DNA of 55,176 bases from Candidatus Omnitrophota bacterium (GTDB lineage: Bacteria > Omnitrophota > Gorgyraeia > Gygaellales > Profunditerraquicolaceae): NCBI GenBank assembly GCA_041308845.1, contig JBFZAT010000044.1, positions 1 through 55,176 of the forward strand. The letters run 5' to 3'. The notes below the pieces were generated by a model that did no database searches, was not told where the DNA came from, and saw only the letters and a program-made list of their open reading frames with translations. The stretch's first letter is position 1. Each line of letters starts with the position of its first letter. Both the position numbers and the translations under genes were made by a program. This document shows positions 2,774 to 20,377 of the stretch, piece by piece.

Positions 2774-2856
2774 TCTTCGGAAGCCAGGCTATCCTATTTA
2801 TAGGACCCTATAGCTTTGCGTCCCCTTCTTACGAAGAGTTTGCCTTTATCGAAACC
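2774..2856 (-). ncRNA. c-di-GMP-I (GEMM) riboswitch aptamer
   Basis: Minus strand reads ...GATAAAGGCAAACTCTTCGTAAGAAGGGGACGCAAAGCTATAGGGTCCTATAAATAGGATAGCCTGGCTTCCGAA; has GGCAAAC, GACGCAAAGC and P2/P3 of RF01051; G at the G20-equivalent position. Confidence 0.9.
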
Positions 2857-5571: not shown

Positions 5572-6300
5572 ATGAAAACAAAAATTACTTTATTAGCTTT
5601 TTTTGTTCTAACATCTGTCATTTCTTATCCGCTAGCGGTGGCTTCAGCTCAAGCTAATCCGGAAAGGAGCCAACTGATGAACCAAGCTAAAGCAGAACCT
5701 TTTGTATTGCCGGCGCTTCCTTATAAAGAAAATGCTTTGGAACCGGTTATTTCTGAAAGAACTTTAAGTTTTCATTACGGTAAACATCATCGCGGGTATT
5801 TGAATAAATTAAACGAACTTGTTGAGGGCACTGAATTGGCTGAGGTTGGGATTGAAGAGTTGATCGAAAAAACGGCTAATAAAGCTGATCAAGCCGCCAT
5901 CTTTAATAATGCTGCCCAGGTCTGGAACCATACTTTCTATTGGAATAGCTTAAGGCCGGCAGGAGGTGGTCAGCCAGCTGGAAGCATAGCTAAGCGGATC
6001 GTTGCTGATTTCGGCAGCTTTGAAAATTTTGTAAAACAATTCTCTGAAATGGGTGCGGCCCAGTTTGGCAGTGGTTGGGTTTGGCTGGTAGAAGAAGATG
6101 GGGTGCTGAAGATAATTAGAACCAGCAATGCTGAAAATCCGATTTCTCAAAAAAAAGGCAGGGCGATTTTGGTGCTGGATGTATGGGAGCATGCTTATTA
6201 TTTAGATTATCAGAATAGAAGATTAGATTATTTAAAGGTAATAATCGATAAGTTGATTAATTGGGAATTTGCTGAGGAAAATTTAAATCGCAATAAATAA
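5572..6300 (+). CDS. sodB: Fe-type superoxide dismutase with N-terminal signal peptide
   Basis: LPALPY, HYGKHH, FNNAAQVWNHTFYW, FGSGW, DVWEHAYY; start moved to ATG 5572 (MKTKITLLAFF...). Confidence 0.93.
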   Translation: MKTKITLLAFFVLTSVISYPLAVASAQANPERSQLMNQAKAEPFVLPALPYKENALEPVISERTLSFHYGKHHRGYLNKLNELVEGTELAEVGIEELIEKTANKADQAAIFNNAAQVWNHTFYWNSLRPAGGGQPAGSIAKRIVADFGSFENFVKQFSEMGAAQFGSGWVWLVEEDGVLKIIRTSNAENPISQKKGRAILVLDVWEHAYYLDYQNRRLDYLKVIIDKLINWEFAEENLNRNK

Positions 6301-6429: not shown

Positions 6430-7332
6430 ATGTTAAGATTAGGATTGTGTTGTAAATTTTATAAAGAACCTATTCGTTTCCGTACTTCGACTGCCAGGTA
6501 TCTGAAGGGTTTTAGCCGTTTGGTGCAGAAAGAAAAGATCTCCGGACTATGTTTAGCTAACGCTGAGGCTCTGCTGCAGGCCATTGAGTATTGTGGCCGG
6601 AATAATATCGGCTGTTTTCGGGTCAACAGCCAAATTTTACCTTTAAAGACTCATCCGGATATCGGATACCAGATAACTGATCTAGCTGCCTGTCAGCAAA
6701 TTAAGCAGGTATTTTCTAGGTGTAAAGAAGCAGCGTTCAAGCTAAATGTGCGGTTAACTTTTCATCCTGATCAATTTATACTTTTAAGTTCTGCCGGTAC
6801 TGATATTGTACAAAATTCAATAGCCGAGCTTGATTATCAAGCCCAGGTAAGTGAATTGATTGGCGCGGATGTAATTAATATTCATGGCGGAGGCGCCTAT
6901 GGTGATAAAATAACTGCTTTGAAGCGCCTGGGGAAGAACTTTTCAAAATTAAATCAGCGGATCCGGGCCCGGCTTACTCTTGAGAATGATGATCGGGTGT
7001 ATACCCCAGCTGACTTATTACCGTTTTGTAAAGAATACGGCATTCCTTTAGTTTATGATCTGCATCATCACCGGTGTTTACCTGATAGTTTGAGTGTTGC
7101 CCAGGCCAGCCGGCAGGCTTTAAAAACCTGGAATCGAGAGCCGTTATTCCATCTTTCCAGCCCCAAGTGTGGTTGGGGTCAAGCCCATCCCGGTTGGCAT
7201 CATGATTATATTGATTTTAATGATTTTCCCGTGGAATGGAGAAAGTTGACGATTACCGTTGAAGTAGAGGCCAAGGCTAAAGAGTTAGCCGTAAAAAAGC
7301 TTTATAAAGATTTACATAAAAATATCAAGTAA
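6430..7332 (+). CDS. uvsE: UV DNA damage endonuclease (UvsE/UvdE)
   Basis: RLGLCC, FRVNSQILP, HPDQF, HGGG, LENDD, DLHHH, HHDYI, VEAKAKE. Confidence 0.92.
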   Translation: MLRLGLCCKFYKEPIRFRTSTARYLKGFSRLVQKEKISGLCLANAEALLQAIEYCGRNNIGCFRVNSQILPLKTHPDIGYQITDLAACQQIKQVFSRCKEAAFKLNVRLTFHPDQFILLSSAGTDIVQNSIAELDYQAQVSELIGADVINIHGGGAYGDKITALKRLGKNFSKLNQRIRARLTLENDDRVYTPADLLPFCKEYGIPLVYDLHHHRCLPDSLSVAQASRQALKTWNREPLFHLSSPKCGWGQAHPGWHHDYIDFNDFPVEWRKLTITVEVEAKAKELAVKKLYKDLHKNIK

Positions 7333-7960: not shown

Positions 7961-8008
7961 AAGACGTTTTACATAACAGATTGCAAGATTTAGCTATATG
8001 AAAGAAAT
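7961..8008 (+). repeat. Bipartite dif-like motif, copy 1 (forward)
   Basis: AAGACGTTTTACATAAC-N18-ATATGAAAGAAAT, 7 bp after flavodoxin stop. Confidence 0.8.
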
Positions 8009-8029
8009 ACTAATAGTGCATTTATAAAT

Positions 8030-8077
8030 AATTGTTTCGTAATTTTCCTTATTTGAGATAGTTAGGTAAAACGTCTT
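8030..8077 (-). repeat. Bipartite dif-like motif, copy 2 (reverse)
   Basis: Reverse complement AAGACGTTTTACCTAAC-N18-TTACGAAACAATT, 13 bp before ATG 8091. Confidence 0.85.
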
Positions 8078-8090
8078 GTATTTTTAAAAC

Positions 8091-9014
8091 ATGAGTGATG
8101 ATAAAGATATTGTAATGGCAATTGGAGGTTTTTTCTTCGGGATATGGTCTTTTTTCGATGGTTTTAAGCGTTTACGCAAGAAAAGATTGATCCAGAATAT
8201 TCCCACCTCGACAATTAGGGGTATGGCAATTGGTTTGGTTGAGTTAACTGGAAAAGTCGATAGCGATATTGTTTTTCGTAGTCCACTTACTGATAATGAG
8301 TGCGTATTATATAAATATTTAATTGAAGTATATCGTAGTAGCGGTAGATCCGGAGAGTGGGTTAAACTTGCGGCAGGAGATAGTTTTTATTCGCCTTTTT
8401 CTCTTAATGATGGAACAGGCAAAGTTATGGTCTTTCCGCAAGGGGCGGAATTAATTATTCCCTTAGACTATCAGTTTAAAACTGGATACGGCAAGACGAT
8501 GCCTGAGAATCTAATACATTTTATGAAACAACATGGAATATCTTATAAGGATTGGTTGGGCCAACGCAGATTACGTTTTCAGGAGTGGTTTATCCGGCCA
8601 CAGGAAACAGTTTACATTTTAGGTTCAGCGATTAAAAAAGACATTCCTCAAGTTCTTCCTAAGGATGAGTTGATGCGCCGGATTGATGAATTAAAATCAA
8701 ACCCCGGGCAAATGTTGGAGATAGATTTAAATAAAGACGGCAAGGTCAGTCTGGAAGAATGGGATCTGGCTGTGAATAGGCTGGAGCAGGGTTTACTTAA
8801 TAAGGTATGGGAAAATAATCAGGTGGATAATAGTGTTGATGTTATAATTGGCAAGGGAGAAGTGGAAAAGGTTTTTATGATTTCTGATCATAGCGAAAAG
8901 GAATTAGTTGGGTCATTAAGCAGAAGGTGTTTTTGGGGTATTTACGGAGGACCGGCGCTTAGTTTGGCGGCATTGGTTTATTTATTATTTAGATTAAATA
9001 TTTTAAGATTTTAA
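8091..9014 (+). CDS. GIDE-domain membrane protein with EF-hand-like loop
   Basis: N- and C-terminal TMs; IQNIPTSTIRGMAIGLVELTG, FSLNDGTGKV; DLNKDGKVSLEE loop; adjacent to LemA. Confidence 0.7.
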   Translation: MSDDKDIVMAIGGFFFGIWSFFDGFKRLRKKRLIQNIPTSTIRGMAIGLVELTGKVDSDIVFRSPLTDNECVLYKYLIEVYRSSGRSGEWVKLAAGDSFYSPFSLNDGTGKVMVFPQGAELIIPLDYQFKTGYGKTMPENLIHFMKQHGISYKDWLGQRRLRFQEWFIRPQETVYILGSAIKKDIPQVLPKDELMRRIDELKSNPGQMLEIDLNKDGKVSLEEWDLAVNRLEQGLLNKVWENNQVDNSVDVIIGKGEVEKVFMISDHSEKELVGSLSRRCFWGIYGGPALSLAALVYLLFRLNILRF

Positions 9015-9028
9015 ATGAAAGGAGGCAG

Positions 9029-9604
9029 TTGATGATCGGAATTATTGTTTTTGGCGTATTGTTTTTTGTCGTTATTGGTCTGATTATGTATTTTGTTTCT
9101 ATCTACAACGGTTTAGTGGTGCTGGCTCGTAATATCGCCAAAGCCTGGGCCAATATCGATGTCCTACTTAAGCAGCGTCGTGATGAAATACCTAAATTAA
9201 TCAGTATTTGCGAAGGGTATATGAAGTATGAGCGGGAAACACTGGAACGGATTACTGCTGCTCGTACTGCTTGTATGCAGGCCAAAGGGGTGGCTGAATC
9301 TGCACAAAAAGAAGGGGAGCTAAGTGGTTTATTAACTAAACTGTTTGCTGTGGCGGAGAATTACCCTGATTTGAAAACAAATCAAAATTTTATGCAATTA
9401 CAGCAGCGGGTCAGTTATCTGGAAAGTCAAATCTCTGACCGCAGAGAATTTTATAATGATTCAGTAAATAGCTACAATATAAGAATACATCAAATCCCGG
9501 ATATGTTTGTAGCCGGAATGCTGAATTATACGGATAAAGAATTATTTAAAGTGAGCGATGAAGACCGTAAGGATGTGGATATTAAATTTGAGTTTCCGAA
9601 ATAG
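9029..9604 (+). CDS. lemA: LemA family protein
   Basis: N-terminal TM, YNGLV, WANIDVLLKQRRDEIP, AENYPDLK, RREFYNDSV. Confidence 0.92.
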   Translation: MMIGIIVFGVLFFVVIGLIMYFVSIYNGLVVLARNIAKAWANIDVLLKQRRDEIPKLISICEGYMKYERETLERITAARTACMQAKGVAESAQKEGELSGLLTKLFAVAENYPDLKTNQNFMQLQQRVSYLESQISDRREFYNDSVNSYNIRIHQIPDMFVAGMLNYTDKELFKVSDEDRKDVDIKFEFPK

Positions 9605-9805
9605 ATTTTGTTTTAATTCTGTGATTAGGAGAGGGCAGTCTGTCCGTTTTTTAGTAAGTACCATTTAGCCAAATAAAATTAGTCCATTCAGGTATTTTGT
9701 AGAAGGGGTGTATTTATTGTTAAATTTGTAGTGGTTCTACGGTTAAGATCTCAGAAACTTAGTATCGCAGAAGAATTATTGAGGTGTAGTATTAATCGGA
9801 TAAGT

Positions 9806-9853
9806 AATTGTTTCTTAAGTATCTGATTATTATCAGGTTATATAAAACGTCTT
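9806..9853 (-). repeat. Bipartite dif-like motif, copy 3 (reverse)
   Basis: Reverse complement AAGACGTTTTATATAAC-N18-TTAAGAAACAATT, 17 bp before ATG 9871. Confidence 0.85.
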
Positions 9854-9870
9854 GTGTTGGGGGGGGGGTA

Positions 9871-10155
9871 ATGATTGGGCTGCGGAAATGGATTTTGATT
9901 TGTTTGATATTATTATTTCCCTGGCAAGTTATTTTTGCGCAAGCTCTTGATCCGATTACCCGATATGAGGAAGATAGCATAAAAAGGGAACAGGTAGCGA
10001 TTGATCGGGATAACCGCAATGCTGAACTGCAGAGAGAATTAAATGCAGAATTAGACAGGTTTAAAAAGCTCTTGGCCTCTACGGCGGACAAAGAGTCGCT
10101 GACCAAGCTTAAAGAAAACCAATCCATACTTATCAAGTTTAACCTTTCCCAGTAA
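9871..10155 (+). CDS. Small secreted hypothetical protein (94 aa)
   Basis: ATG 9871 after G-rich RBS; signal peptide (IFA-Q); helical body; bracketed by motif copies 3 and 4. Confidence 0.65.
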   Translation: MIGLRKWILICLILLFPWQVIFAQALDPITRYEEDSIKREQVAIDRDNRNAELQRELNAELDRFKKLLASTADKESLTKLKENQSILIKFNLSQ

Positions 10156-10201
10156 GACGTTTTATCCAAACTTTTATTTCCCAATAGTTTATTAAACATT
10201 G
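10154..10201 (+). repeat. Bipartite dif-like motif, copy 4 (forward)
   Basis: AAGACGTTTTATCCAAA-N18-TTATTAAACATTG; overlaps TAA stop at 10153-10155. Confidence 0.8.
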
Positions 10202-10211
10202 TTTAAATCAA

Positions 10212-10240
10212 GGAACTTTCTTTCCTTTGTTATTGTCTAA
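10212..10240 (+). promoter_or_regulatory. ECF (sigmaE-type) promoter
   Basis: GGAACT-N17-GTCTAA, same elements as 11746-11774. Confidence 0.75.
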
Positions 10241-10260
10241 TAGTTAGAAAGGAGAGAAAT

Positions 10261-10668
10261 ATGTGTAAAAAAAATTGGGTAAACAAAAGTTGTTTAATTG
10301 CAGGTTTTTGTGCAATAACTGTGTTTTTTACTTCACCAGCTTCTGCCGCTCAGAGGCATCATGATCGTCATGCCAGGCCGCATCAAAAGGGTGCATTTAG
10401 TTTTGCGCTTTCCTTGTTTTTCCCCTCCCAGAGAGTAGTACTGAACACTGTGCCTGGCTATTATAGCAGCTTTATTGTTCGGGAACCGGTAGTTGTCCAA
10501 CCGCAACCATATTATGCTGGATCAATTATTATAAATGTACCTAATATTTATGGTGGGTATACTGCTGTGCGGTTGGTAAAGCATAGTTATGGTTATCTTG
10601 GGCCCCAAGGAGAATATTATCCTGGTTATCCTACGGTTTATCAATTAGCGGCTCTTTATGGAAGATAA
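10261..10668 (+). CDS. Secreted hypothetical protein, first gene of ECF operon
   Basis: Signal peptide, His/Arg-rich patch, Tyr/Pro/Gly-rich C-terminus. Confidence 0.7.
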   Translation: MCKKNWVNKSCLIAGFCAITVFFTSPASAAQRHHDRHARPHQKGAFSFALSLFFPSQRVVLNTVPGYYSSFIVREPVVVQPQPYYAGSIIINVPNIYGGYTAVRLVKHSYGYLGPQGEYYPGYPTVYQLAALYGR

Positions 10669-10711
10669 GTTTTGTTTTGGTTAATTGCATCATTCAGGAT
10701 ATAATAAAGGC

Positions 10712-11269
10712 ATGCCAGAGGTGGTTTTAGAAACATTAAAACTTGTAGTTGCAGGTGATCCGGCTGCTTTTGAGCAGGTGTATAAGGCAATGAGTGGGTT
10801 TGTTTATAATGTTGCCCTAAGGATTACTCGTAATAACGCAGATGCCCAAGAGGTGACTCAAGATGTTTTCTTGAAGTTATACCATAGCTTGAAAGATTTT
10901 CAATTCCGTTCAGCTTTTAAAACTTGGGTATACAGAATTACGGTGAATACAGCGATTAATCGTTACCGTAGGTCTGCGCGGGAATTAAAAAACCGGGTAG
11001 CGAATGATCTTCTTATCGAGTCGCTGCCGGGTACTAGTTCAGCTTCTGCAAGTTTAACGCAAAGTGACCATGAAGCCAGGTTGAATGATTTATTATCCAA
11101 GTTAAGCCCGGAGCATAGGGTATGTTTGATCTTGAGAGAGATTGAGGGGTTAAGTTATCAGGAGATTGCCGCTGCCTTAAAAATCCCGATGAATACCGTA
11201 CGCTCCCGCTTAAAGCGCGGGCGCCAAGCATTGATTGAAGAAGGTAGGAAGGGAGAGCAGATATTATGA
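10712..11269 (+). CDS. ECF RNA polymerase sigma factor (sigma24 family)
   Basis: AQEVTQDVFLK, FKTWVYRITVN, LREIEGLSYQEIA, NTVRSRLKRGR. Confidence 0.93.
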   Translation: MPEVVLETLKLVVAGDPAAFEQVYKAMSGFVYNVALRITRNNADAQEVTQDVFLKLYHSLKDFQFRSAFKTWVYRITVNTAINRYRRSARELKNRVANDLLIESLPGTSSASASLTQSDHEARLNDLLSKLSPEHRVCLILREIEGLSYQEIAAALKIPMNTVRSRLKRGRQALIEEGRKGEQIL

Positions 11270-11745
11270 GATGCGCTCAGGTAAAAAAACTTTTAAGCAC
11301 TGATTATTTGGACGGTTTAGCTGATCAGAAAACCCTTCAGGCCATAAAGGATCACCTTGGCGTTTGTGCTTTATGCCGGCAGACAGAGCAGGCGCTGGTT
11401 AAAACACGTGTTATTCTAAAGAATAGCCTTCGCTTGGAGCCTCCGGCAGAAATTTGGGAGAATATTCAATCAAAAATATTGCAAGAAGAATTAAGCCGGG
11501 TTTCTCAGCCGAAAGTAAGTTTCCTTGGGTGGCTTGAACGGTTATTGAGGCCTAAGCCGGTTTTAGCAGCGGCGACCATCATGGCGGTCATGTTGGTAAT
11601 GGCGGCTTTAAACTTCACTAGTTTCCGTCGAAAAGTGGTGATCCAGGATAACGGCGAAGAAACCGTCTTTTTATATTACAATGACTACCAGGAATATGCT
11701 TCTAGGGTTGATCTGGGGACAGATATCGAAGAGTATTTTTTATAA
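11266..11745 (+). CDS. Zinc-finger (zf-HC2/ZAS) anti-sigma factor
   Basis: HLGVCALC (HxxxCxxC), single TM, overlaps sigma stop. Confidence 0.85.
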   Translation: MRCAQVKKLLSTDYLDGLADQKTLQAIKDHLGVCALCRQTEQALVKTRVILKNSLRLEPPAEIWENIQSKILQEELSRVSQPKVSFLGWLERLLRPKPVLAAATIMAVMLVMAALNFTSFRRKVVIQDNGEETVFLYYNDYQEYASRVDLGTDIEEYFL

Positions 11746-11774
11746 GGAACTTTTGCAGAAGTTTTATTGTCTAA
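11746..11774 (+). promoter_or_regulatory. ECF (sigmaE-type) promoter
   Basis: GGAACT-N17-GTCTAA upstream of Spy/CpxP gene. Confidence 0.75.
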
Positions 11775-11794
11775 GTTAATGAAAGGGGTGAAAT

Positions 11795-12277
11795 ATGAAA
11801 AAGAAAATGGGATACCTAATGTTAGTAACAGTAAGTTTTTTGTTGGTGACCGCTGTGGCTTATGCTCAAGAAAACAAGGAAACTAAAAGGCAGGGCCGTT
11901 CCGGGCAACCGCGGCAAGAAGAAACGATTTTCGAACAGCTTAATCTTACTCCTGAACAGAAGCAAAGATTAGAAGATAATCGCCAGGCACAGCGGCAGCA
12001 GGCGCAAGAGGTCATCGCTACCCTGAAAGATAAGCGTAAAAATCTCCAGGAAATTTTGAAGAATCCTTCAACTACCCGCTCTAGCGTACGGGAGATTGCC
12101 GATGATATTAAGGCGCTCCAGGCCAAGCAGACTGATCTTAGGTTAGATGGCATATTTTCGGTAAAAGAAATTTTAACGACAGAGCAGTATGTTAAATTCC
12201 AGGGGTTGATGGAAGAGCGTGCTGAAAAAATGCGTGGAGCGATTAAGCAATATAAACGTCCGGTTAAAAATCGGTAG
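11795..12277 (+). CDS. Spy/CpxP family periplasmic protein
   Basis: Signal peptide, LNLTPEQ and ILTTEQ (LTxxQ) motifs. Confidence 0.85.
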   Translation: MKKKMGYLMLVTVSFLLVTAVAYAQENKETKRQGRSGQPRQEETIFEQLNLTPEQKQRLEDNRQAQRQQAQEVIATLKDKRKNLQEILKNPSTTRSSVREIADDIKALQAKQTDLRLDGIFSVKEILTTEQYVKFQGLMEERAEKMRGAIKQYKRPVKNR

Positions 12278-12297
12278 AGTTCTCTGCGTTAAACAGT

Positions 12298-12330
12298 AAG
12301 GGAGGCTTTTAGATAAGCCTCCCTTTATTC
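12298..12330 (+). terminator. Intrinsic terminator
   Basis: AAGGGAGGCTT / AAGCCTCCCTT stem then T-rich tail. Confidence 0.75.
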
Positions 12331-12509
12331 TACTATTTTATTTCCGGCCTGCGATAACAAACCGCTTGACTAACCTGCATTAAATACGTAAAATAAAAAC
12401 ATACGTAGAAGCTCCAGTCAAAGCATTAATAACCGTCTAAATCAAAACTAGGCAATTTTAGAAATCTATTGATTGCCTTTGATTTTAATATAACTAAAAG
12501 GGGGTGGAG

Positions 12510-12833
12510 ATGTCCATTATTAAGGAATTTAAGGATTTTGCAATTAAGGGGAATGCTGTTGATATGGCGGTAGGTATTATTATCGGTGCAGCGTTTGGTA
12601 AAATAATAAATTCTCTGGTGAATGATATCATTATGCCCCCCATTGGGATGTTAATTGGAGGAGTTGATTTTAAAAATTTAGTTATTACGCTTAAGGTAGC
12701 AACAGATACAACTCCTATGGTAGCCATTAGGTATGGAGCTTTTATTAATAATGTTATAGATTTTACGATCGTTGCGGCATCTATTTTTGTGGTAGTCAGG
12801 GCTATCACGGCATTGAAGAAAAAGACGGTTTAA
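12510..12833 (+). CDS. mscL: Large-conductance mechanosensitive channel (short form)
   Basis: [48 protein letters not shown]. Confidence 0.93.
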
Positions 12834-12864
12834 TTCCAGAACAAAAGAAAGGATAGGAACAGTA

Positions 12865-13542
12865 ATGAAAAAAATCATTATCGGGATTATTACGTTTTCT
12901 CTATGCTTAGTGATTTTTGTTTTGGTGGCCAGGAATTTTATAGTTAAAACCGCGGTTACCAAAGCAGTTACGGCATTAACCGGGTTGAAAGTTGAAATCC
13001 AGAAAATTGATATCGGACTGTGGAGTTCTACGCTGGAGATTAATTCGTTAAAAGTTTATAATCCCGTAGGCTTTACGGATAAGATTATGGTGGATATACC
13101 TTTAGTTTACGTTGACTATAGTTTAGGTGGATTTTTTAAGAATCGGGTGCAGCTTAATAAAATCAAAATTGAAATTAAAGAGCTTGCGGTTATTATCAAT
13201 GAACAGGGGAAACTTAATTATAATTCTTTAGCCATGTTGATGCCTAAAACCGGCGGCGGTAAATCTCCGGAAGTAAAAATTAATGAACTTTACCTAAAAA
13301 TCGGGAAAGTATGGTATAAGAGCTATTTGCGGCTGGCCGGGACTAAGCAAATGGAGTTTAATGCTAACATTGAAGAAACATTTAAAGATGTGACTAACCC
13401 CTCGCAATTAGCCAGCGATATTCTTAAAAAGATTCTTGCGCGGGTAGGCATTTCAGATTTAGCCAAATTTGATGTTTCCGGTGTAAGTAAGTTATCCGTA
13501 GGAGAAGCAAAAGACAGTTTAAAGAATATATTTACACAATAA
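12865..13542 (+). CDS. AsmA-like membrane-anchored protein
   Basis: N-terminal TM, beta-rich body, INEQGKLNYNSL typical of AsmA-family segments. Confidence 0.6.
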   Translation: MKKIIIGIITFSLCLVIFVLVARNFIVKTAVTKAVTALTGLKVEIQKIDIGLWSSTLEINSLKVYNPVGFTDKIMVDIPLVYVDYSLGGFFKNRVQLNKIKIEIKELAVIINEQGKLNYNSLAMLMPKTGGGKSPEVKINELYLKIGKVWYKSYLRLAGTKQMEFNANIEETFKDVTNPSQLASDILKKILARVGISDLAKFDVSGVSKLSVGEAKDSLKNIFTQ

Positions 13543-13596
13543 ATTTACCGGGTAGATAAAGTCAGAAAGTTTTTTAGCTAGTCTAGCTAGCCTAAG

Positions 13597-14925
13597 GTGA
13601 AGAGAATGAAACAAAAAATTGTCGATTTTATAAAACGGGATATCTGGCGGATTAAAACTGCTAAAATTCCGCGTAAACAGTTTTTCTTAATTAAGAATGC
13701 AAGAATCGCGATTCTTGCGCTGCGCGGTTTTAATGAAGACAAATGTTCTTTACGTTCTTCGGCTTTAACTTTTTATACCCTTTTATCGATCGTGCCGATT
13801 TTTGCCATGGCTTTCGGGGTGGCTAAAGGTTTTGGTTTCGAAAAATTATTAGAAAAACATATTCTGGAAAATTTTCCCACCCAAAATGATGTTATTGTCA
13901 ACGTAATAAATTTTGCTAATACCATGCTGGAAAACACCAAAGGTGGTTTGATTGCCGGTATCGGAGTTATAGTTTTATTCTGGGCAGTGATCAAGGTTTT
14001 GAGTAATATCGAGAAGTCTTTTAATGACATTTGGGGGGTAAAAAAGATGCGGGATTTGGGGCGCCGGCTGAGTGATTATCTTTCGGTTATGCTGATTTGC
14101 CCGATTTTTTTAATTGTTTCCAGTGGTTTGACTGTTTTTGTGCGGTCGCAAACGGTGATGATCCTTGAAAAAATATCATTCTTGGGTCCGGTCAGCCAAC
14201 TAATTTATTTTCTTTTAGAGTTTCTTCCTTATACGGTGATGTGGGCGGTATTCACCTTTATTTATATCTTTATTCCTAATACTAAAGTGAATTGGAAATC
14301 CGGGTTGATCGCCGGTATTCTGGCGGGGACTATTTACCAGTTTGTACAGTTGCTTTATGTTAATTTTCAAATTGGGGCGGCTAAGTATAATGCGATATAT
14401 GGCAGTTTTGCGGCCTTGCCGCTTTTTTTAGTTTGGCTACAGCTTTCTTGGCGTATAGTATTATTCGGAGCGGAGGTTTCTTTTGCCCACCAGAATGTCG
14501 ATACGTATGAATTTGAGCCGGATAGTTTAAGTGTTAGCCAATCTTTTAGAAAATTACTTACTTTAAGGGTGTCTAGTTTACTGGTTAAGAATTTTGCTAA
14601 AGGAGAGAATCCTTTAACTGCGGCTCAAATATCCCATGAATTGGAAATTCCGGTCAGGCTGTTGCGGGATATATTAAATGAACTCTTAAAGGCAAAAATT
14701 GTCGCAGAGATTAAAACGGAAGAAGGTAAAGCTTTAGCTTATAATCCGGGATGTGATATAAATCTTATGACGATTAAGTTTGTTTTAGATAGGATTGATG
14801 AAAATGGCTCTGATAATATCCCTGTGCCCCAGACTAAAGAGATCGCCAAGATCAGTGGGTCTTTGCAGGCTTTCAGCGAATTAATTCAAAAGTCTTCGGC
14901 TAATCTTTTCCTTAAAGATATTTAA
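13597..14925 (+). CDS. YihY/BrkB family membrane protein with C-terminal Rrf2-like HTH
   Basis: SSALTFYTLLSIVP, IEKSFNDIWGV, YGSFAALPLFLVWL; C-terminal wHTH. Confidence 0.88.
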   Translation: MKRMKQKIVDFIKRDIWRIKTAKIPRKQFFLIKNARIAILALRGFNEDKCSLRSSALTFYTLLSIVPIFAMAFGVAKGFGFEKLLEKHILENFPTQNDVIVNVINFANTMLENTKGGLIAGIGVIVLFWAVIKVLSNIEKSFNDIWGVKKMRDLGRRLSDYLSVMLICPIFLIVSSGLTVFVRSQTVMILEKISFLGPVSQLIYFLLEFLPYTVMWAVFTFIYIFIPNTKVNWKSGLIAGILAGTIYQFVQLLYVNFQIGAAKYNAIYGSFAALPLFLVWLQLSWRIVLFGAEVSFAHQNVDTYEFEPDSLSVSQSFRKLLTLRVSSLLVKNFAKGENPLTAAQISHELEIPVRLLRDILNELLKAKIVAEIKTEEGKALAYNPGCDINLMTIKFVLDRIDENGSDNIPVPQTKEIAKISGSLQAFSELIQKSSANLFLKDI

Positions 14926-14957
14926 AGTGATGTCGTTAGTTTTAATCGAAAGGGGGA

Positions 14958-15650
14958 GTGATGAAAGCATATTGTGCTGAGTTTTGCGGAACGTTTTGGT
15001 TAGTTTTAGGTGGTTGTGGCAGCGCGGTTCTGGCGGCGGCTTTCCCTGGTTTAGGTATAGGACTTTTGGGAGTGTCTTTGGCTTTTGGTTTAACGGTCTT
15101 AACCATGGCTTATGCCATTGGCCATATTTCTGGTTGCCATCTTAATCCTGCTGTTTCCATTGGCCTGTGGGCTAGCGGTCGTTTCCCGGCTAAAAAATTG
15201 ACTCCTTATATTATTGCTCAGGTTTTAGGTGGGATTGTTGCCGGGGGAGTGCTTTATCTTATTGCTTCCGGTCAGTCCGGCTTCAGCCTGGCTTCGGGTT
15301 TTGCTTCCAATGGTTATGGTCTTCATTCCCCGGGAGGTTATTCTTTGTTGGCGGCGTTAATTACAGAGATAGTGATGACTATGTTTTTCTTATTTGTAAT
15401 ATTAGGAGCTACCGATAAAAGAGCACCTCAAGGTTTTGCTCCACTAGCGATTGGCTTGTGCCTGACTTTAATACATCTAATCAGTATTCCTGTTACCAAT
15501 ACGTCGGTTAATCCGGCGCGTAGTACTGGCGTGGCTTTGTTTGTTGGTGATTGGGCAGTTGCTCAACTGTGGTTATTTTGGGTAGCCCCAATAATCGGCG
15601 CAATAATCGGCGCATTTATATTTCGTTCTATTAACCAAATTAAAGATTAA
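14958..15650 (+). CDS. aqpZ: Aquaporin Z
   Basis: [39 protein letters not shown]. Confidence 0.96.
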
Positions 15651-15651
15651 T

Positions 15652-15681
15652 CAAACATAAGCAAACATAAGCAAACATAAG
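15652..15681 (+). repeat. Tandem triplication of CAAACATAAG (left arm of motif copy 5)
   Basis: CAAACATAAG x3 directly after aqpZ stop. Confidence 0.9.
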
Positions 15682-15726
15682 ACGCTTTATGTAAATACTT
15701 AACCTTTATTGGCTTATGAAACAAAT
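15679..15726 (+). repeat. Bipartite dif-like motif, copy 5 (forward)
   Basis: AAGACGCTTTATGTAAA-N18-TTATGAAACAAAT. Confidence 0.85.
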
Positions 15727-15746
15727 GTTAATATATTAAAAGAAGT

Positions 15747-15794
15747 ATTTGTTTCGTTAGTCATTGATTTTTAATGGTTTATATAAAACGTCTG
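15747..15794 (-). repeat. Bipartite dif-like motif, copy 6 (reverse)
   Basis: Reverse complement CAGACGTTTTATATAAA-N18-TAACGAAACAAAT, 22 bp before ferritin ATG. Confidence 0.85.
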
Positions 15795-15816
15795 TTATTG
15801 CTGAAAGGAGTGGTAA

Positions 15817-16308
15817 ATGGAAATAAAGGATAAGATAACAAAGGCGATTAATAAACAGATTAATGCTGAACTTTATTCGTCGTATTTGTATTTGGCGATG
15901 GCGGCTTATTTCGAATCCAGGAATTGGTCGGGTTTTGCTCATTGGATGAGGTTACAGGCTCAAGAAGAGAATATCCACGCTATGAAGTTCTACGATTATG
16001 TTTTAGAGCGCGGCGGGGAAATAAAACTGGAGGATATTAAGGCTGAAGATGCGGAGTGGAAATCACCGCTAGAAGTTTTTGAGGCGGTTTATGAGCACGA
16101 ATTAAAAGTGACCGCTTTAATTAATGATCTGCTGAAGTTAGCGCGTCAGGAAGATGACGCTGCTACGGAGTCTATGCTGAAGTGGTTTATTGACGAGCAA
16201 GTTGAAGAGGAGACGCATGCTAAGCAGATTGTAGATAAGCTTAAGCTGATCAAGGATTCGGCAAATGGATTATTTATGCTTGATCATCAATTGGGCGAAA
16301 GAAAATAA
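15817..16308 (+). CDS. ftnA: Non-heme ferritin
   Basis: QINAELYSSYLYLAMA, QAQEENIHA, YEHELKVT, FIDEQVEEE. Confidence 0.93.
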   Translation: MEIKDKITKAINKQINAELYSSYLYLAMAAYFESRNWSGFAHWMRLQAQEENIHAMKFYDYVLERGGEIKLEDIKAEDAEWKSPLEVFEAVYEHELKVTALINDLLKLARQEDDAATESMLKWFIDEQVEEETHAKQIVDKLKLIKDSANGLFMLDHQLGERK

Positions 16309-16425
16309 ATAAAGATAAGATTGTTTTAATACTTCAACTTGTTGGCAACGGAGTTTAATTAATAAAGTTGTTGTGTTGGAATTAAGTTCTGTTATAGTAA
16401 TCGTTAAGTAAATAAGAGGATAAGA

Positions 16426-16512
16426 GGTCTGGAGATGTTTAGCATATCCAGAGGGTATCGATGGTCGGGCCGCCATCTTGCATGTAGATGCAGGATGGCT
16501 TTTGATTTTTTT
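16426..16512 (+). ncRNA. Monovalent-cation riboswitch-like RNA (Na+ DUF1646 / nhaA-I type) with overlapping terminator, copy 1
   Basis: GGTCTGGAGATG..CATATCCAGA hairpin, GATGGTCGGGCCGCC core, GCCATCTTGCAT/ATGCAGGATGGC terminator + T tract; upstream of mscS; class assigned from memory of consensus. Confidence 0.7.
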
Positions 16513-16541
16513 GGTAGCCCAATTCAAAAAGGAAATAATTA

Positions 16542-17570
16542 ATGAACGATTATTTATTCTCTGGAGTTTTATTATTGAGTGCGCTAGCTGCCGGATGGTT
16601 TTTGTATGTTTCTATTGCCATTCTGCTTAAACGCGGATTACGTTTTATATATTTAAAAGGTTTTAAGCTTCATCTAGAGTATCTCAAGCCTCCTTTACGT
16701 CTATTGATTCCTGTCTTCTTTGTTTCCGCGGTGTTTTCTTCATTGCTCCTGCCGCCGAAGTCCGTTTTTTTATTTAGCCATTTGATCCACATAGTTTTAA
16801 TTGCTTCTTTCGGTTGGGCGGCGGTAAAGATTATCCATATTCTACGCGACTCAGGGTTAGAGCGTTATAATATTAACGTCAAAGACAATGCCCGGGCCCG
16901 CGGTATGCATACGCAGATACGCTTAATGGCCAACATAATTATTATCTTGGTTATTATTTTTACTGTCGCCCTTATTCTGATGACTTTTCCGGAAGTCAGG
17001 CAGGTCGGGTTGACTATTTTGGCTTCGGCTGGAATTATCGGTATAGTTATTGGGTTTGCTGCCCAAAAAACACTGGGTAATTTGATTGCTGGTATTCAGA
17101 TCGCGATCACTCAGCCGATTAGAATCGATGATGTTGTGATCGTGGAAAATGAATGGGGTAAAATTGAAGAGATAACACTTACTTACGTAGTAGTGCGGGT
17201 TTGGGATTTACGGCGTTTGATCGTGCCGATTGGTTATTTTCTGGAGAAACCTTTCCAGAACTGGACGCGTACTTCGGCAGATTTACTGGGGTCAGTGATG
17301 ATTTTTGCAGATTATACCGTACCGGTAAAAGAAATTCGTATTGAATTAACCAATATACTTAAAAACAGCCCGCTTTGGGATAGAAAAGTTAATGTATTAC
17401 AGCTTACAGATATGAATGAAAAGGCAATTCAGTTGCGGGCGTTGATGAGCGCAGAAGATGCTTCAATATTATGGGATTTACGTTGTGAAGTCAGAGAGAA
17501 ACTTTTGGAATTTTTACAGAAAAAGTTTCCGGAATGCCTGCCGCGAGTGCGCTTAGTCACGCAAGCCTAA
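16542..17570 (+). CDS. MscS family mechanosensitive channel
   Basis: ASAGIIGIVIGFAAQKTLGNLIAG, PIRIDDVV, GKIEEITLTYV. Confidence 0.92.
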   Translation: MNDYLFSGVLLLSALAAGWFLYVSIAILLKRGLRFIYLKGFKLHLEYLKPPLRLLIPVFFVSAVFSSLLLPPKSVFLFSHLIHIVLIASFGWAAVKIIHILRDSGLERYNINVKDNARARGMHTQIRLMANIIIILVIIFTVALILMTFPEVRQVGLTILASAGIIGIVIGFAAQKTLGNLIAGIQIAITQPIRIDDVVIVENEWGKIEEITLTYVVVRVWDLRRLIVPIGYFLEKPFQNWTRTSADLLGSVMIFADYTVPVKEIRIELTNILKNSPLWDRKVNVLQLTDMNEKAIQLRALMSAEDASILWDLRCEVREKLLEFLQKKFPECLPRVRLVTQA

Positions 17571-17571
17571 T

Positions 17572-17619
17572 AAGACGTTTTATCTAATCTTTTATTTTGT
17601 AATAGTTTACGAAACAATC
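17572..17619 (+). repeat. Bipartite dif-like motif, copy 7 (forward)
   Basis: AAGACGTTTTATCTAAT-N18-TTACGAAACAATC, 1 bp after mscS stop. Confidence 0.85.
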
Positions 17620-17651
17620 ACAACAACTGTAAATTCAACTATTTTTTATCA

Positions 17652-18698
17652 ATGAAGACTATAAAAAAAAATGGTCATTTGGTTAGGGCTAAGATAATTT
17701 GTACGCTGGGGCCGGCGTCTTCCAATGAAACGGTGATCAGGAAGATGATGCTTGGCGGCATGGATGTTGGACGTCTGAACTTTTCTCATGGTAAACCCCA
17801 GGAATTAGTTCGCAGGATAGAGTTGATTCGGCTTTTAAATTTAAAATATCGACGGCGCTTAAAAATTCTGGGAGACCTGCAGGGGCATCGTATCAGGGTC
17901 GGGGAGCTTAGTCTGCCGCTTGAACTCAAACAACGCAGGACTTTATGGCTTACTCAACAAAGATTAAAGGGTACTTCAGAAAAAATTTCTTTTGATTATC
18001 AGGGGTCGCTGCGGGGAATAAAGAATGGACAACATATATTTATTGACGATGGCAATCTTTGCCTGGAAGTAATCGGTCGGAGTAAAAATAGTTTAAAGGT
18101 AAAGGTAATCATCGGCGGTTTATTGAAGTCATACAAGGGAATTAATAGTCCCCAGACCAAGCTTGATTTCGGGGGGATTAGTCAGAAAGATGTAAAGGAT
18201 ATACTTTTTTGCGCAGCTAATGGTATTGAGTATATTGCGCAGTCATTTGTACGCAGTAAGAAAGACATTTTAGATGTAAAAAAAGTGTTGGGACAAAATT
18301 CACCCTGCCAGATTATTGCTAAAATTGAATGCCGGGAAGGTATTAAAAATATTGATGATATAATTAAGTTAGCCGACGGTATTATGATTGCTCGAGGGGA
18401 TATGGGCGTATCTTTGCCCGTGTACGAAATCCCGATTATTCAGAAAATGATTATAAAAAAATGCAACCGGGCTGGAAAATTCGTTATTACCGCAACCCAA
18501 ATGCTCGAGAGTATGACCGAAAACCTACGGCCTACCCGGGCCGAAGTAACTGATGTGGCTAATGCCATAATTGACGGTACTGATTTTGTTATGCTTTCGG
18601 CTGAGTCTGCAGTGGGTAGATACCCGGTAGAAGCAGTGTCCATGATGAACAGTATAATTAAATATACAGAACGGCATTATTGCAAGGTTAAATATTAA
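17652..18698 (+). CDS. pyk: Pyruvate kinase lacking the C-terminal domain
   Basis: [48 protein letters not shown]; only 348 aa. Confidence 0.92.
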
Positions 18699-18829
18699 AT
18701 TTTGAGGCCATTTGTATCTTTTTACTTTCGAAATCTATGGATTAGAATTTGTCTGGTAGGTTGGTTAATTTATGTTACTATGGAGACTGTAAAATGAGTA
18801 GATTAAAATTATCTAAACCGGAGTTTACG

Positions 18830-19420
18830 ATGAATAAGTTAAGAAAATATTTTATCACCGGTTTGGTGGTAGTGGTACCGGTGCTGTTGACGATTTTCGT
18901 TCTGGCCGCTTTATTCCGCTTTACTGACAATATCCTAGGTCGATTTCTGAATGTTTACCTAGAAAATACCTTAGGATTTTATATCCCCGGCTTGGGTATT
19001 CTTTTGTTTATTTTAGTTATACTCTTAGCTGGATTATTGGCGAACCGTTACATTGGTAAAAGAATTTTTCCTTTAATCGATAAATGGTTCTCTGATTTGC
19101 CTTTAATCAGGAATATTTATCCTGCTTTTAAACAGGTTATTTCATTTGTTCTGATACAAAAAGAATTTGGGTTTAAAAAAGTGGTCCTGGTAGAATATCC
19201 CTCCGCTGGCATATGGTCATTAGGTTTCTTGACTAATGAGGAATTGCAGAAAATTAACCAAGTTACCAATAAGCCGATGGTTTCAGTTTTTGTACCGACT
19301 TCGCCTGGTCCGTTTACCGGAATGGTTATTTTCGTCGCACAAGAAAATTTGAAGTTTCCTGATATCTCAATTGCTGACGCTTTTAGAATTATCATTTCTG
19401 GTGGAGTTTTCAGGCCTTAA
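18830..19420 (+). CDS. DUF502 family membrane protein
   Basis: RKYFITGLVVVVP, VVLVEYP, VFVPTSP; start placed at ATG 18830 after GGAG. Confidence 0.88.
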   Translation: MNKLRKYFITGLVVVVPVLLTIFVLAALFRFTDNILGRFLNVYLENTLGFYIPGLGILLFILVILLAGLLANRYIGKRIFPLIDKWFSDLPLIRNIYPAFKQVISFVLIQKEFGFKKVVLVEYPSAGIWSLGFLTNEELQKINQVTNKPMVSVFVPTSPGPFTGMVIFVAQENLKFPDISIADAFRIIISGGVFRP

Positions 19421-19423
19421 AAT

Positions 19424-19789
19424 ATGAAGAACGATTCCGATGCTTCGTTGATCTATTCTACTGACCGGGGGGCGATTTGCCCGGATTGTTCTCAGGCAGT
19501 TAGTGAGTGTATTTGCCGTCAAATCAAAAGAAATGTTTTGCCTGAATCCGGAGGTAAAATAATCATACGCCATGAGACTGCCGGCAGAAGGAATAAAGGT
19601 ATGACCATAATTTCCGGTTTGCCTTTAAGTCAGGAAGATTTAGAGAGATTAGCTAAAAAATTAAAGAGTACCTTGGGTACCGGCGGCGCAGTAAAGGATT
19701 ATACTATTGAATTGCAAGGGCAGCAGTGTGAAAAAGTCGCGGTGGCATTACGCAGGTTAGGGTACATGATAACTGCGATTAAAATTTAA
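19424..19789 (+). CDS. yciH: SUI1/YciH translation initiation factor family
   Basis: LIYSTDRG, CPDC...CIC, GRRNKGMTIISG, LKSTLGTGGAVKD, IELQG. Confidence 0.88.
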   Translation: MKNDSDASLIYSTDRGAICPDCSQAVSECICRQIKRNVLPESGGKIIIRHETAGRRNKGMTIISGLPLSQEDLERLAKKLKSTLGTGGAVKDYTIELQGQQCEKVAVALRRLGYMITAIKI

Positions 19790-19794
19790 TAAGT

Positions 19795-19842
19795 ATTTGT
19801 TTTATAACTAACTGAATCTAATCAATTTGCGTACAACGTCTT
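19795..19842 (-). repeat. Bipartite dif-like motif, copy 8 (reverse)
   Basis: Reverse complement AAGACGTTGTACGCAAA-N18-TTATAAAACAAAT. Confidence 0.8.
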
Positions 19843-19916
19843 ATAAGGAAGAAATTTATTGCAATTGGGATTTTTTATGTTAGAGTAACAATGAATAAAT
19901 TAAAGTGATTTTAAGT

Positions 19917-19997
19917 GGTCTGGAGATGCGCAAGTATTTCTGGAGGATTTTGATGGTCGGGCCGCCATCTTGCATATAAATGCAGGGTGGTTTTTTT
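19917..19997 (+). ncRNA. Monovalent-cation riboswitch-like RNA with overlapping terminator, copy 2
   Basis: GGTCTGGAGATGC-GCAA-GTATTTCTGGA hairpin, GATGGTCGGGCCGCC core, GCCATCTTGCAT/ATGCAGGGTGGT terminator + T tract. Confidence 0.7.
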
Positions 19998-20032: not shown

Positions 20033-20377
20033 ATGAAATTTATATTGACTTCATTGCTTGGGATATTAGTTATAATCCTAGGATTAAGCGTTTATAATTT
20101 GCAAAAAGAATTTTCTAACGCCAGAGAAAGTGCTATATTCTATAGCCAAAGAAGTGATGATCTGCAGAGTGAATTAATGCGGTTGTCTAAGGAATGCGCT
20201 CAAAAAGAAGAGTTTTTAGTGGAAATCGAAGAATCTATTACAAAGCTTGAAAATAAAATCCAACTAGAAAACTTAGAGCGTTCTATCCCTAAAAAAACCT
20301 GGGATGAAATTAAGCCGATTATTGACCGGTTAAGGGTGTTTCAGGAATCAAGGCAAGATAGTAAACTATCAAATTGA
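20033..20377 (+). CDS. Membrane-anchored coiled-coil hypothetical protein
   Basis: N-terminal TM then heptad-rich helix. Confidence 0.7.
   Translation: MKFILTSLLGILVIILGLSVYNLQKEFSNARESAIFYSQRSDDLQSELMRLSKECAQKEEFLVEIEESITKLENKIQLENLERSIPKKTWDEIKPIIDRLRVFQESRQDSKLSN

Follow-up and report, generated by a model that had tools for sequence, protein, structure and literature searches.

Eight copies of a 48-bp two-box repeat in a stress-gene region of Candidatus Omnitrophota: probable members of a repeat family served by a RAYT-like transposase

The window analysed here, a stretch of 55,176 bp (contig JBFZAT010000044.1), carries eight copies of a 48-bp element made of two conserved boxes and a free spacer. 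All eight are intergenic, and all are found within 7961-19842. Ferritin homologues place the organism in Candidatus Omnitrophota. The copies lie in a long co-directional series of stress-protection genes (5533-32222), and all genes of the copy-bearing region are on the plus strand. According to Pfam, the run starts with an Fe/Mn superoxide dismutase, UvdE, a flavodoxin, GIDE and LemA, which are followed by an extracytoplasmic function (ECF) sigma factor with an anti-sigma factor and by a Spy/LTXXQ protein. The middle of the run comprises MscL (an assignment taken from the Pfam annotation of the identical gene on the related contig L001), DUF748, BrkB, aquaporin, ferritin and MscS, and the end a short pyruvate kinase, DUF502 and SUI1. 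Further downstream in the window are the trehalose genes OtsA, OtsB and TreT, a second MscS and UDG.

Copies were sought by a consensus search with up to three mismatches and then by a position-weight scan. The consensus search gave seven matches in the window where none is expected (100 dinucleotide shuffles), and the position-weight scan added a degenerate eighth, at 10154-10201(+). When scored with a matrix of the 108-member family described below, the eight copies reach 24-48 bits, and every other position of the window stays below 8 bits. The window copies share a gapless register of 48 nt, with box1 AAGACGYTTTAYNTAA, 18 non-conserved nt, and box2 TTAYRAAACAAWT. A first-pass annotation of the window had described eight intergenic copies in this register and none outside 7.9-19.9 kb, all of which the searches bear out; for reverse copies, its coordinates are the right-hand (box1) ends. 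The orientations run + - - + + - + -, so that the strict alternation it had noted from 15679 onward is real, and limited to the last four copies. It had also been right about the placement relative to genes. Counted from a stop codon, the forward copies start at -2 to +28 nt; three reverse copies end 13, 16 and 22 nt before an ATG, and the fourth (copy 8) precedes a promoter-like site, which is in turn followed by a riboswitch match of the nhaA-I class (19916-19970). Copies as close as 13-22 nt to a start codon would have to be transcribed within operons. The TAA at 10153-10155 is common to an open reading frame (ORF) and to the motif of copy 4. Copies 1 and 2, and likewise copies 5 and 6, form inverted doublets with box1 facing outward (Table 1).

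Table 1. Repeat copies and the adjoining tandem repeat in the window (REP, repetitive extragenic palindrome).
Feature	Coordinates	Strand	Context
REP-like copy 1	7961..8008	+	box1 left, 6 nt past flavodoxin-like gene stop; left arm of doublet 7961-8077
REP-like copy 2	8030..8077	-	right arm of 117-bp doublet (21-bp spacer); box1 ends 13 nt before ATG 8091 (GIDE/LemA genes)
REP-like copy 3	9806..9853	-	single; box1 ends 16 nt before ATG 9870, G10 tract between
REP-like copy 4	10154..10201	+	single, degenerate box2, 24 bits; first bases overlap TAA of 95-aa ORF 9870-10155
10-nt tandem repeat (CAAACATAAG x 3.4)	15648..15681	+	runs into first 3 nt of copy 5 box1
REP-like copy 5	15679..15726	+	left arm of doublet 15679-15794; 28 nt past aquaporin gene stop
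REP-like copy 6	15747..15794	-	right arm of 116-bp doublet (20-bp spacer); box1 ends 22 nt before ferritin ATG 15817
REP-like copy 7	17572..17619	+	single; starts 1 nt past MscS-like gene stop, ends 32 nt before pyruvate-kinase-like gene
REP-like copy 8	19795..19842	-	single; 5 nt past SUI1 gene stop; 16 nt beyond box1, TTGCAA-N16-TAGAGT promoter-like site

The element is not peculiar to this window. Six loci matched the exact pattern in species-representative genomes, and three of the six belong to metagenome-assembled genomes (MAGs) of Omnitrophota; a slightly looser pattern gave 59 loci in metagenome contigs. Position-weight scans of these loci brought the number to 109 copies in 375 kb of ascertained contigs, and overall the motif is present about 110 times in 57 Omnitrophota metagenome contigs. 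The profile of the 108 unique copies reads AAGACG(T/C)TTTAYNTAAC, about 17 free positions, (A/G)GTTAYRAAACAATT, and then a weakly conserved CYTT, i.e. an invariant outer box (AAGACGYTTTAYNTAAC), a free spacer of 17-18 nt, and an inner box. Among viral contigs there were two weak matches, which we judge to be due to chance. The family is confined to a lineage of Candidatus Omnitrophota, with a genome-wide copy number of roughly tens, a rough estimate from the sensitivity of the exact pattern (3/53) and the one or two exact matches per contig of 0.4-0.9 Mb.

Almost all of the unique copies in related contigs are intergenic (93/97), often within 30 nt of a gene end, and box1 faces stop codons 43 times and start codons 42 times. 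An enrichment in convergent or divergent intergenic regions was sought without statistical power, with 85% of gene pairs co-directional. The commonest arrangement is the forward-reverse doublet: 34 were found, 23 of them with a spacer of 18-21 bp, and single copies occur as well. None of the 34 doublets has a target-site duplication. The adjoining genes are of every kind (SHMT, PGK, TIM, DNA ligase, EF-G, S1, purB, cold-shock proteins, response regulators, toxin-antitoxin (TA) pairs and restriction-modification genes). Outside the window, the motif thus adjoins housekeeping and other genes, and the link to stress-gene modules proposed by the first-pass annotation has to be given up. The same diversity removes a simple regulon model, in which copies would be found solely upstream of co-regulated genes. 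Together with the even split between stops and starts, it upholds the view that the sites are not ordinary operators.

Two further loci deserve mention for the form or placement of their copies. In L034, the reading frame of a 521-aa ORF runs through a single copy (6520-6567) in its N-terminal, signal-peptide part; the L032 orthologue has no copy and starts with a shorter signal peptide, which recalls the Rickettsia palindromic elements inside genes. In L044, a doublet with an unusually long spacer of 53 bp (890-1068) has inverted DnaA-box-like sequences (GTTATCCACAG / CTGTGGATAAC) on both sides.

Genes near the copies were clustered, and those bracketed by copies were examined. In one family, of about 230 aa, the gene has a forward copy on one side and a reverse copy on the other. 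This is so in three unrelated contigs: L056, L029 and L062 (where the contig end cuts off the left side). In all three, Pfam detects Y1_Tnp, the IS200-like transposase domain, with E-values of 1e-14 to 4e-16. The best NCBIfam model is NF047646, REP-associated tyrosine transposase (RAYT), with an E-value of 2e-20 compared to 3e-3 for the IS200/IS605 model, and with a score of 73 bits that falls below the equivalog cut-off of 80 bits. The sole PDB match, a weak one (E 0.012), is to 4ER8, E. coli TnpAREP, and is aligned through the HUH motif and the YI..NPV tyrosine motif. In six family members, the HUH motif (H62-Y63-H64) and the catalytic Tyr122 in CGRYIERNPV are invariant.

An independent test used contigs that were fetched by protein homology alone (L078, L081 and L082, with proteins 60-64% identical to that of L056). 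Each has a forward copy 58-100 nt upstream of the gene and a reverse copy that overlaps or abuts the stop codon, box1 outward. In total, a gene of 223-236 aa lies between two inverted copies with box1 outward at six independent loci. The box1 variant changes from lineage to lineage, yet it is common to both flanking copies (AAGACGCTKTTGATAA in L081, TAGACGCTTTA in L082), as expected if enzyme and site co-evolve. Homologues of the protein number more than 2,200 (E<=1e-10), and among the best matches listed, those with a name are from Omnitrophota/Omnitrophica. Many of the homologues come from contigs about 1 kb long, which is what one would expect where a gene lies between repeats. The same gene context of the transposase recurs in 9 and in 4 contigs from different samples, which suggests a fixed, probably single-copy gene rather than a jumping one. 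This Y1/HUH transposase is the only gene that is repeatedly bracketed by copies, and among the most frequent families listed for the 164 neighbouring gene clusters there is no dominant recombinase family. Judging by the order of gene and repeats, the architecture is that of a REPtron or "TIRtron" (TIR, terminal inverted repeat). Two other enzymes were each seen once at no more than 1 kb from copies: a large serine recombinase (Resolvase + Recombinase + Zn ribbon; L018 3823-5739) and an rve-family integrase (L007 1011-1970).

We therefore read the sites as a repeat family of the REP/REPIN type (REPIN, REP doublet forming hairpins; here TIRtron-type) that is served in trans by the RAYT-like Y1/HUH transposase, and put the probability of this reading at about 0.8. 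The data show that the copies form one family and are arranged as doublets, that they flank the transposase gene, that their boxes are under purifying selection, and that target duplications are missing. What the first-pass annotation had suggested, sites for an enzyme acting in trans, holds insofar as the sites appear to be cis elements of a DNA-processing enzyme; the enzyme associated with them, on the other hand, is of the HUH/Y1 kind and not a Xer tyrosine recombinase.

The model that follows from this reading is built on E. coli TnpAREP and on REPINs. The cognate enzyme would be the 223-236-aa RAYT-like HUH/Y1 transposase, encoded elsewhere in the genome by a gene with one outward-facing unit on each side. 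It would bind the boxes, and would nick and rejoin single-stranded DNA at or beside the invariant AGACG at their outer end. In this way, copies may have been seeded into intergenic DNA, where they would then persist. As side effects, they could supply stop codons, end up directly upstream of promoters, give read-through transcripts long hairpins, and be preferred places for rearrangement. The action of the transposase on the repeats, as well as any part in gene exchange or expression, is what we infer by analogy.

Several observations weigh against the reading as a REP/REPIN-type family, among them the sub-threshold RAYT score and the weak structural match already mentioned. There is no RAYT-like gene in the 55-kb window, where neither Pfam nor tblastn detected a recombinase or transposase of any kind, and the window copies are paired with the enzyme by family membership only. 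Between copies of one genome the spacers are unrelated, and nothing points to recent spread. A classical REP forms a stable hairpin. The doublets do fold as long hairpins, with -26 to -38 kcal/mol and z-scores of -2.9 to -5.0 (-26 kcal/mol and z -2.9 for 7961-8077, -32.3 kcal/mol and z -5.0 for 15679-15794), as any inverted repeat would. Single units, however, are weakly palindromic and fold no better than shuffled sequences (mean minimum free energy -3.6 kcal/mol, mean z -0.3). There is symmetry within the unit (GTTTT-AY-GTAAC / GTTAC-AAAAC, with the AGACG tag invariant), and no compensatory covariation: a C at position 7 stands opposite the invariant A43 in 32 copies. The two spacers of one doublet are unrelated as well, with an agreement of 0.40 compared to 0.38 for shuffled partners. 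The variants at C7 and G40 are anti-correlated with p = 0.07, which leaves a strand-specific hairpin signal in question. With its sequence symmetry and weak folding, the unit is nearer to the TIR variant than to a canonical REP.

Selection, on the other hand, is evident in the boxes. Orthologous sites of related contigs (17 pairs) show differences at 4.1% of box positions compared to 25.8% of spacer positions, a comparison somewhat biased by the detection of the sites with the box matrix. The boxes are under purifying selection. Constrained boxes without a pairing signal make the pattern one of sequence-specific recognition of two boxes, not of a self-sufficient hairpin, and conservation of this kind would also fit a protein that binds double-stranded DNA. 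This too speaks against the preferred reading, as does the -35 element found beyond box1 in 13 cases (see below), which leaves room for a regulatory role. A structured RNA was considered and rejected: no copy has a match in Rfam 15, be it at the gathering threshold or at E<=1, the motif is found as often in one orientation to transcription as in the other, and covariation is absent.

Comparison of related contigs indicates that homology tends to break at the copies. Between related contigs there are 107 internal ends of homology. At 17 of them the outer end of box1 is no more than 6 nt away, where 2.7 are expected and 1,000 randomisations gave at most 11; box2 ends account for only two. This enrichment counts in favour of the preferred reading, with the reservation that it may in part come about because an alignment halts at the edge of a conserved box. 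At purB, contigs with 91-96% identity differ in the small genes upstream, each of which has a direct copy after it: one contig has a CopG-type TA-like trio, another two tandem ORF6N genes with a 668-bp period. In L008 and L047, direct copies follow successive small genes at this place. Also in this region, a secreted-protein gene has a divergent 3' part, which stops precisely at a copy. The tandem duplication in L047 (7543-8926, 668-bp period, upstream of purB) comprises a repeat copy, a leader of 114 nt and an ORF6N-domain gene, and its leader resembles the one that separates forward copy and RAYT-like gene in L078 and L082.

Closer to the window, contig L001, from a MAG, is collinear with it at 99.65% identity and has two units (20 nt) fewer of the tandem repeat at 15648-15681 (L001 5041-5072). 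Near-identical sequence is contained in MAG GCA_041308905.1. A similar stutter of ATTCTCAG repeats abuts box1 in L017 (6600-6700). In both cases, the short tandem duplications abutting box1 end at ...AG/ACG. Duplications and breakpoints fit nicking and joining at the outer end of box1, or replication slippage there. Also in L017, a 75-nt insertion inside a 184-aa ORF (6168-6242, relative to L027, L040 and L061) has inverted TCCCGAA...TTCGGGA ends and could be a small palindromic insert of another kind. For the window genes, the next relatives (ferritin with 84-90% amino acid identity, pyruvate kinase with about 80%) have different neighbours and no copies, so that a comparison of synteny through these two genes is uninformative; at the equivalent places, they have ordinary terminators and promoters.

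These data fit the idea that the copies are hot spots of rearrangement; a dedicated cassette system is not demonstrated. The first-pass annotation had envisaged gene modules exchanged at the sites, and of this there remains that breakpoints and variable segments coincide with copies. One could go further and propose that the enzyme moves, duplicates or swaps segments between outward-facing units, as in a gene-cassette system, and/or that the doublets act as stress-responsive mRNA-stability or insulator elements. Candidate cassettes would be 17572-19842 in the window, which is arranged forward-reverse like the locus of the transposase itself, with pyruvate kinase, DUF502 and SUI1 as cargo, and the small TA and ORF6N genes between direct copies upstream of purB. 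Stress-responsive doublets would explain why copies are concentrated in a stress-gene region. We regard this extension as doubtful, if worth keeping in mind.

The two constrained boxes, which are about three helical turns apart, could also be operators or upstream sites of a transcription factor or a nucleoid protein, for instance of a stress regulon that includes the ECF sigma operon. The constraint on the boxes relative to the spacer, the lack of hairpin covariation, the tight spacing of the boxes, the doublet spacers of 18-21 bp and the abundance of stress genes in the window region are all in line with this proposal. So is the distribution of promoters: of the 17 predictions beyond box1, 13 have a sigma70-like promoter starting at a distance of 3-20 nt, compared to 2 of 7 beyond box2, and this recurs in several orthologous groups. 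In the window, it is copy 8 that has a promoter-like site beyond box1. Some copies may thus be upstream or insulating elements, as far as the predicted promoters tell. As a general explanation, however, the operator model is unlikely. Across the family, the neighbours are diverse housekeeping and accessory genes with no common theme, box1 faces stops as often as starts, and several copies are so close to an ATG (13-22 nt) that no room is left for a promoter. The relatives' ferritin and pyruvate kinase genes lack the motif entirely, and copies flanking a Y1 transposase gene at six loci are not what the model predicts.

Promoters within the unit were considered separately. An ECF-sigma promoter (GAAAC...CGTC), suggested by the ECF sigma/anti-sigma pair in the cluster, is ruled out by the order of the elements and by a spacing of 32 nt that does not fit its -35 and -10 elements. 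A sigma70 or Bacteroidetes-type promoter would need -10 and -35 elements at a workable spacing, and no conserved ones were found. An IHF-like WATCAANNNNTTR reading of positions 26-38 was likewise discarded, as merely TCA and TTA are moderately conserved there.

The uniform inverted doublets of about 116 bp, with a terminal and a subterminal conserved box, resemble MITEs (miniature transposable elements with inverted repeats) or mobile insertion cassettes of an insertion sequence with a DDE-type transposase. The 48-bp arms would then be terminal inverted repeats and the doublets cargo-less deletion derivatives, and the rve-family integrase gene of L007, 260 bp from a doublet, could be cited in support. 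We consider this quite improbable, given 0/34 doublets with a target-site duplication, internal sequences that are unrelated among copies of one genome, and a Y1/HUH transposase as the only gene repeatedly bracketed.

The first-pass annotation had favoured Xer/dif-like sites of the pdif type, i.e. sites of a tyrosine recombinase that bound exchangeable modules, with strand exchange in GACGTT. Xer/dif sites measure 28-30 bp and consist of two conserved inverted arms of 11 bp around a central region of 6-8 bp. Box1 of the forward window copies does contain TAA-GACGTT-TTA, and the partly alternating orientation, the homology breakpoints at box1 ends and the different small genes between direct copies at purB would suit such a system. 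Yet the left arm is not conserved. In the 108 copies, the 14 positions upstream of AAGACG hold at most 0.3 bit each, as do the 11 nt upstream of GACGTT that would form the arm, and the base preceding AAGACG is C in 45 copies, T in 33 and A in 24. Solely TAA and TTA flank GACGTT, of which the T varies. In copy 5, the putative arm is part of the copy-specific 10-nt tandem repeat, the length of which differs in the near-identical assembly. Bipartite conservation over 48 bp is unlike a dif site, the window encodes no tyrosine recombinase, and none recurs in the 164 gene clusters, among the most frequent families listed. The associated enzyme belongs to a different superfamily with a single-strand mechanism. 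The Xer model is, in our judgement, very improbable. The least tenable proposal is that the doublets are integron-like attC sites, which come after gene cassettes and recombine as folded single strands. Two features recall attC: the doublet is an imperfect dyad, about 116 bp long, in which four boxes are conserved and the centre varies, and direct copies come after successive small genes upstream of purB in L008 and L047. But a GTTRRRY/RYYYAAC core pair with the spacing of attC is missing, and the inter-box segments (17-18 nt) of one arm do not pair with those of the other. Half-sites often stand alone as single copies, copies in either orientation are scattered among housekeeping genes, and no integron integrase was seen.

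As for the window, we think it quite probable that its copies are passengers in the intergenic gaps of a stress-gene region, and not the boundaries of a dedicated exchange system. They are clustered: inside 7.9-20.1 kb, a region defined post hoc, six of the eight intergenic gaps of at least 60 nt hold copies, compared to 0/17 outside. Possible reasons are local spread, or tolerance in a region that is loosely packed and separately regulated.

The region has some features of its own that are independent of the repeats. Two matches to the nhaA-I (Na+-responsive) riboswitch score above the gathering threshold (16425-16478 (+), 40.0 bits; 19916-19970 (+), 41.7 bits), upstream of the MscS-like gene at 16542 and of a 114-aa ORF at 20033, and the pair is consistent with the osmotic/salt-stress theme of the region. 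A c-di-GMP-I-GGC riboswitch match (2775-2853 (-), 65 bits, E 4e-13) lies upstream of the minus-strand gene 2120-2686, whose product is a 188-aa protein with an acidic repetitive tail. Ten G residues in a row (9857-9866) lie between copy 3 and the start (ATG, 9870) of a signal-peptide/coiled-coil ORF of 95 aa; the tract may be prone to slippage (phase-variable) or may have arisen as an artefact of assembly. The pyruvate kinase (17652-18698, 348 aa) has the barrel domain only and lacks the C-terminal domain; this short form is kept at 73-80% identity in very many Omnitrophota contigs, each time in a different neighbourhood.

New here are, for the uncultivated Candidatus Omnitrophota, the consensus of a repeat and its cognate family of transposases, with more than 2,200 homologues; the kind of system is already known. 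REPIN-RAYT systems have been discussed as long-lived, vertically inherited replicators, and, to our knowledge, they have been studied almost only in Proteobacteria. The form of the Omnitrophota repeat is atypical, between classical REPs and the little-studied TIRtrons, and makes recognition by Y1 transposases testable on a new substrate. On a practical level, the motif explains assembly breaks around these genes, and it is worth masking or annotating, lest it be taken for regulatory or recombination sites. The stress genes of the window are not part of a demonstrated exchange system.

How does the family compare with known systems? The Acinetobacter pdif/Xer and chromosomal dif sites share the intergenic location, the partly alternating orientation and an enzyme acting in trans, and differ in having a conserved second arm, in site length and in enzyme superfamily. 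IS200/IS605 elements and palindrome-associated MITEs have in common with our family the Y1/HUH domain, a single-strand mechanism, the lack of target duplication and subterminal structured ends. The ends of IS200/IS605, however, are not inverted copies of each other, unlike the flanking units in Omnitrophota, the NCBIfam IS200 model scores far below the RAYT model for the Omnitrophota protein, and the recurring gene context of the transposase points to a fixed gene.

The resemblance to the CGTC-tagged REPs (Rickettsia RPE-4/6, Neisseria dRS3; PMC3733652) is a resemblance only. The outer end ...AAAACGTCTT reads CGTC on one strand, and doublets, clusters and an occasional in-frame N-terminal copy (L034) are shared. 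The CGTC-tagged REPs have stems of 8-9 bp, loops of 4-5 nt and a CCA tail, and are reported without a dedicated transposase (PMC3733652).

Much closer are the REP, BIME (bacterial interspersed mosaic element) and REPIN-RAYT systems of E. coli (TnpAREP, 4ER8) and Pseudomonas. They too consist of short extragenic repeats near gene ends, present as singles and as inverted doublets of about 100 bp, with a variable doublet spacer, an invariant short outer motif and no target duplications, and with an HUH/Y1 gene flanked by inverted repeats. A REPIN is such a doublet, about 100 bp long, with conserved REPs and a highly variable spacer (10.1101/2021.07.10.451892). A classical REP, by contrast, is a compact, stable hairpin of 20-40 nt, whereas the Omnitrophota unit has 48 bp, two boxes and a free spacer of 17-18 nt. 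The outer tag is AAGACG instead of the GTAG of canonical REPs, the protein has 223-236 aa compared to 165 aa for the 4ER8 chain, the copies apparently number tens and not hundreds, and the host belongs to an uncultivated phylum related to Planctomycetes, Verrucomicrobia and Chlamydiae.

REPtrons, TIRtrons (with their proteins, TIRYTs) and REP dimers have all been described (Di Nocera, De Gregorio and Rocco 2013, PMC3733652). The paper also documents that a REP can lie 20 bp or less from an upstream stop codon, provide a stop codon with its end, or fall into the N-terminal part of an ORF; our family has examples of all three (window 10153-10155, L008 4142-4144 and L034 6520-6567). TIRtrons are RAYT-like genes between long terminal inverted repeats that are not canonical REPs, and their downstream repeat sometimes overlaps the 3' end of the gene (PMC3733652). 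The TIRs form moderately abundant families of single copies, dimers and groups, and the proteins differ from RAYTs in length (PMC3733652). No Omnitrophota member is among the TIRtrons described there (PMC3733652), and their TIR sequences (e.g. those sharing GGGGWSAS) are unrelated to the Omnitrophota motif. Of all known descriptions, that of a TIRtron variant nevertheless fits the Omnitrophota family best.

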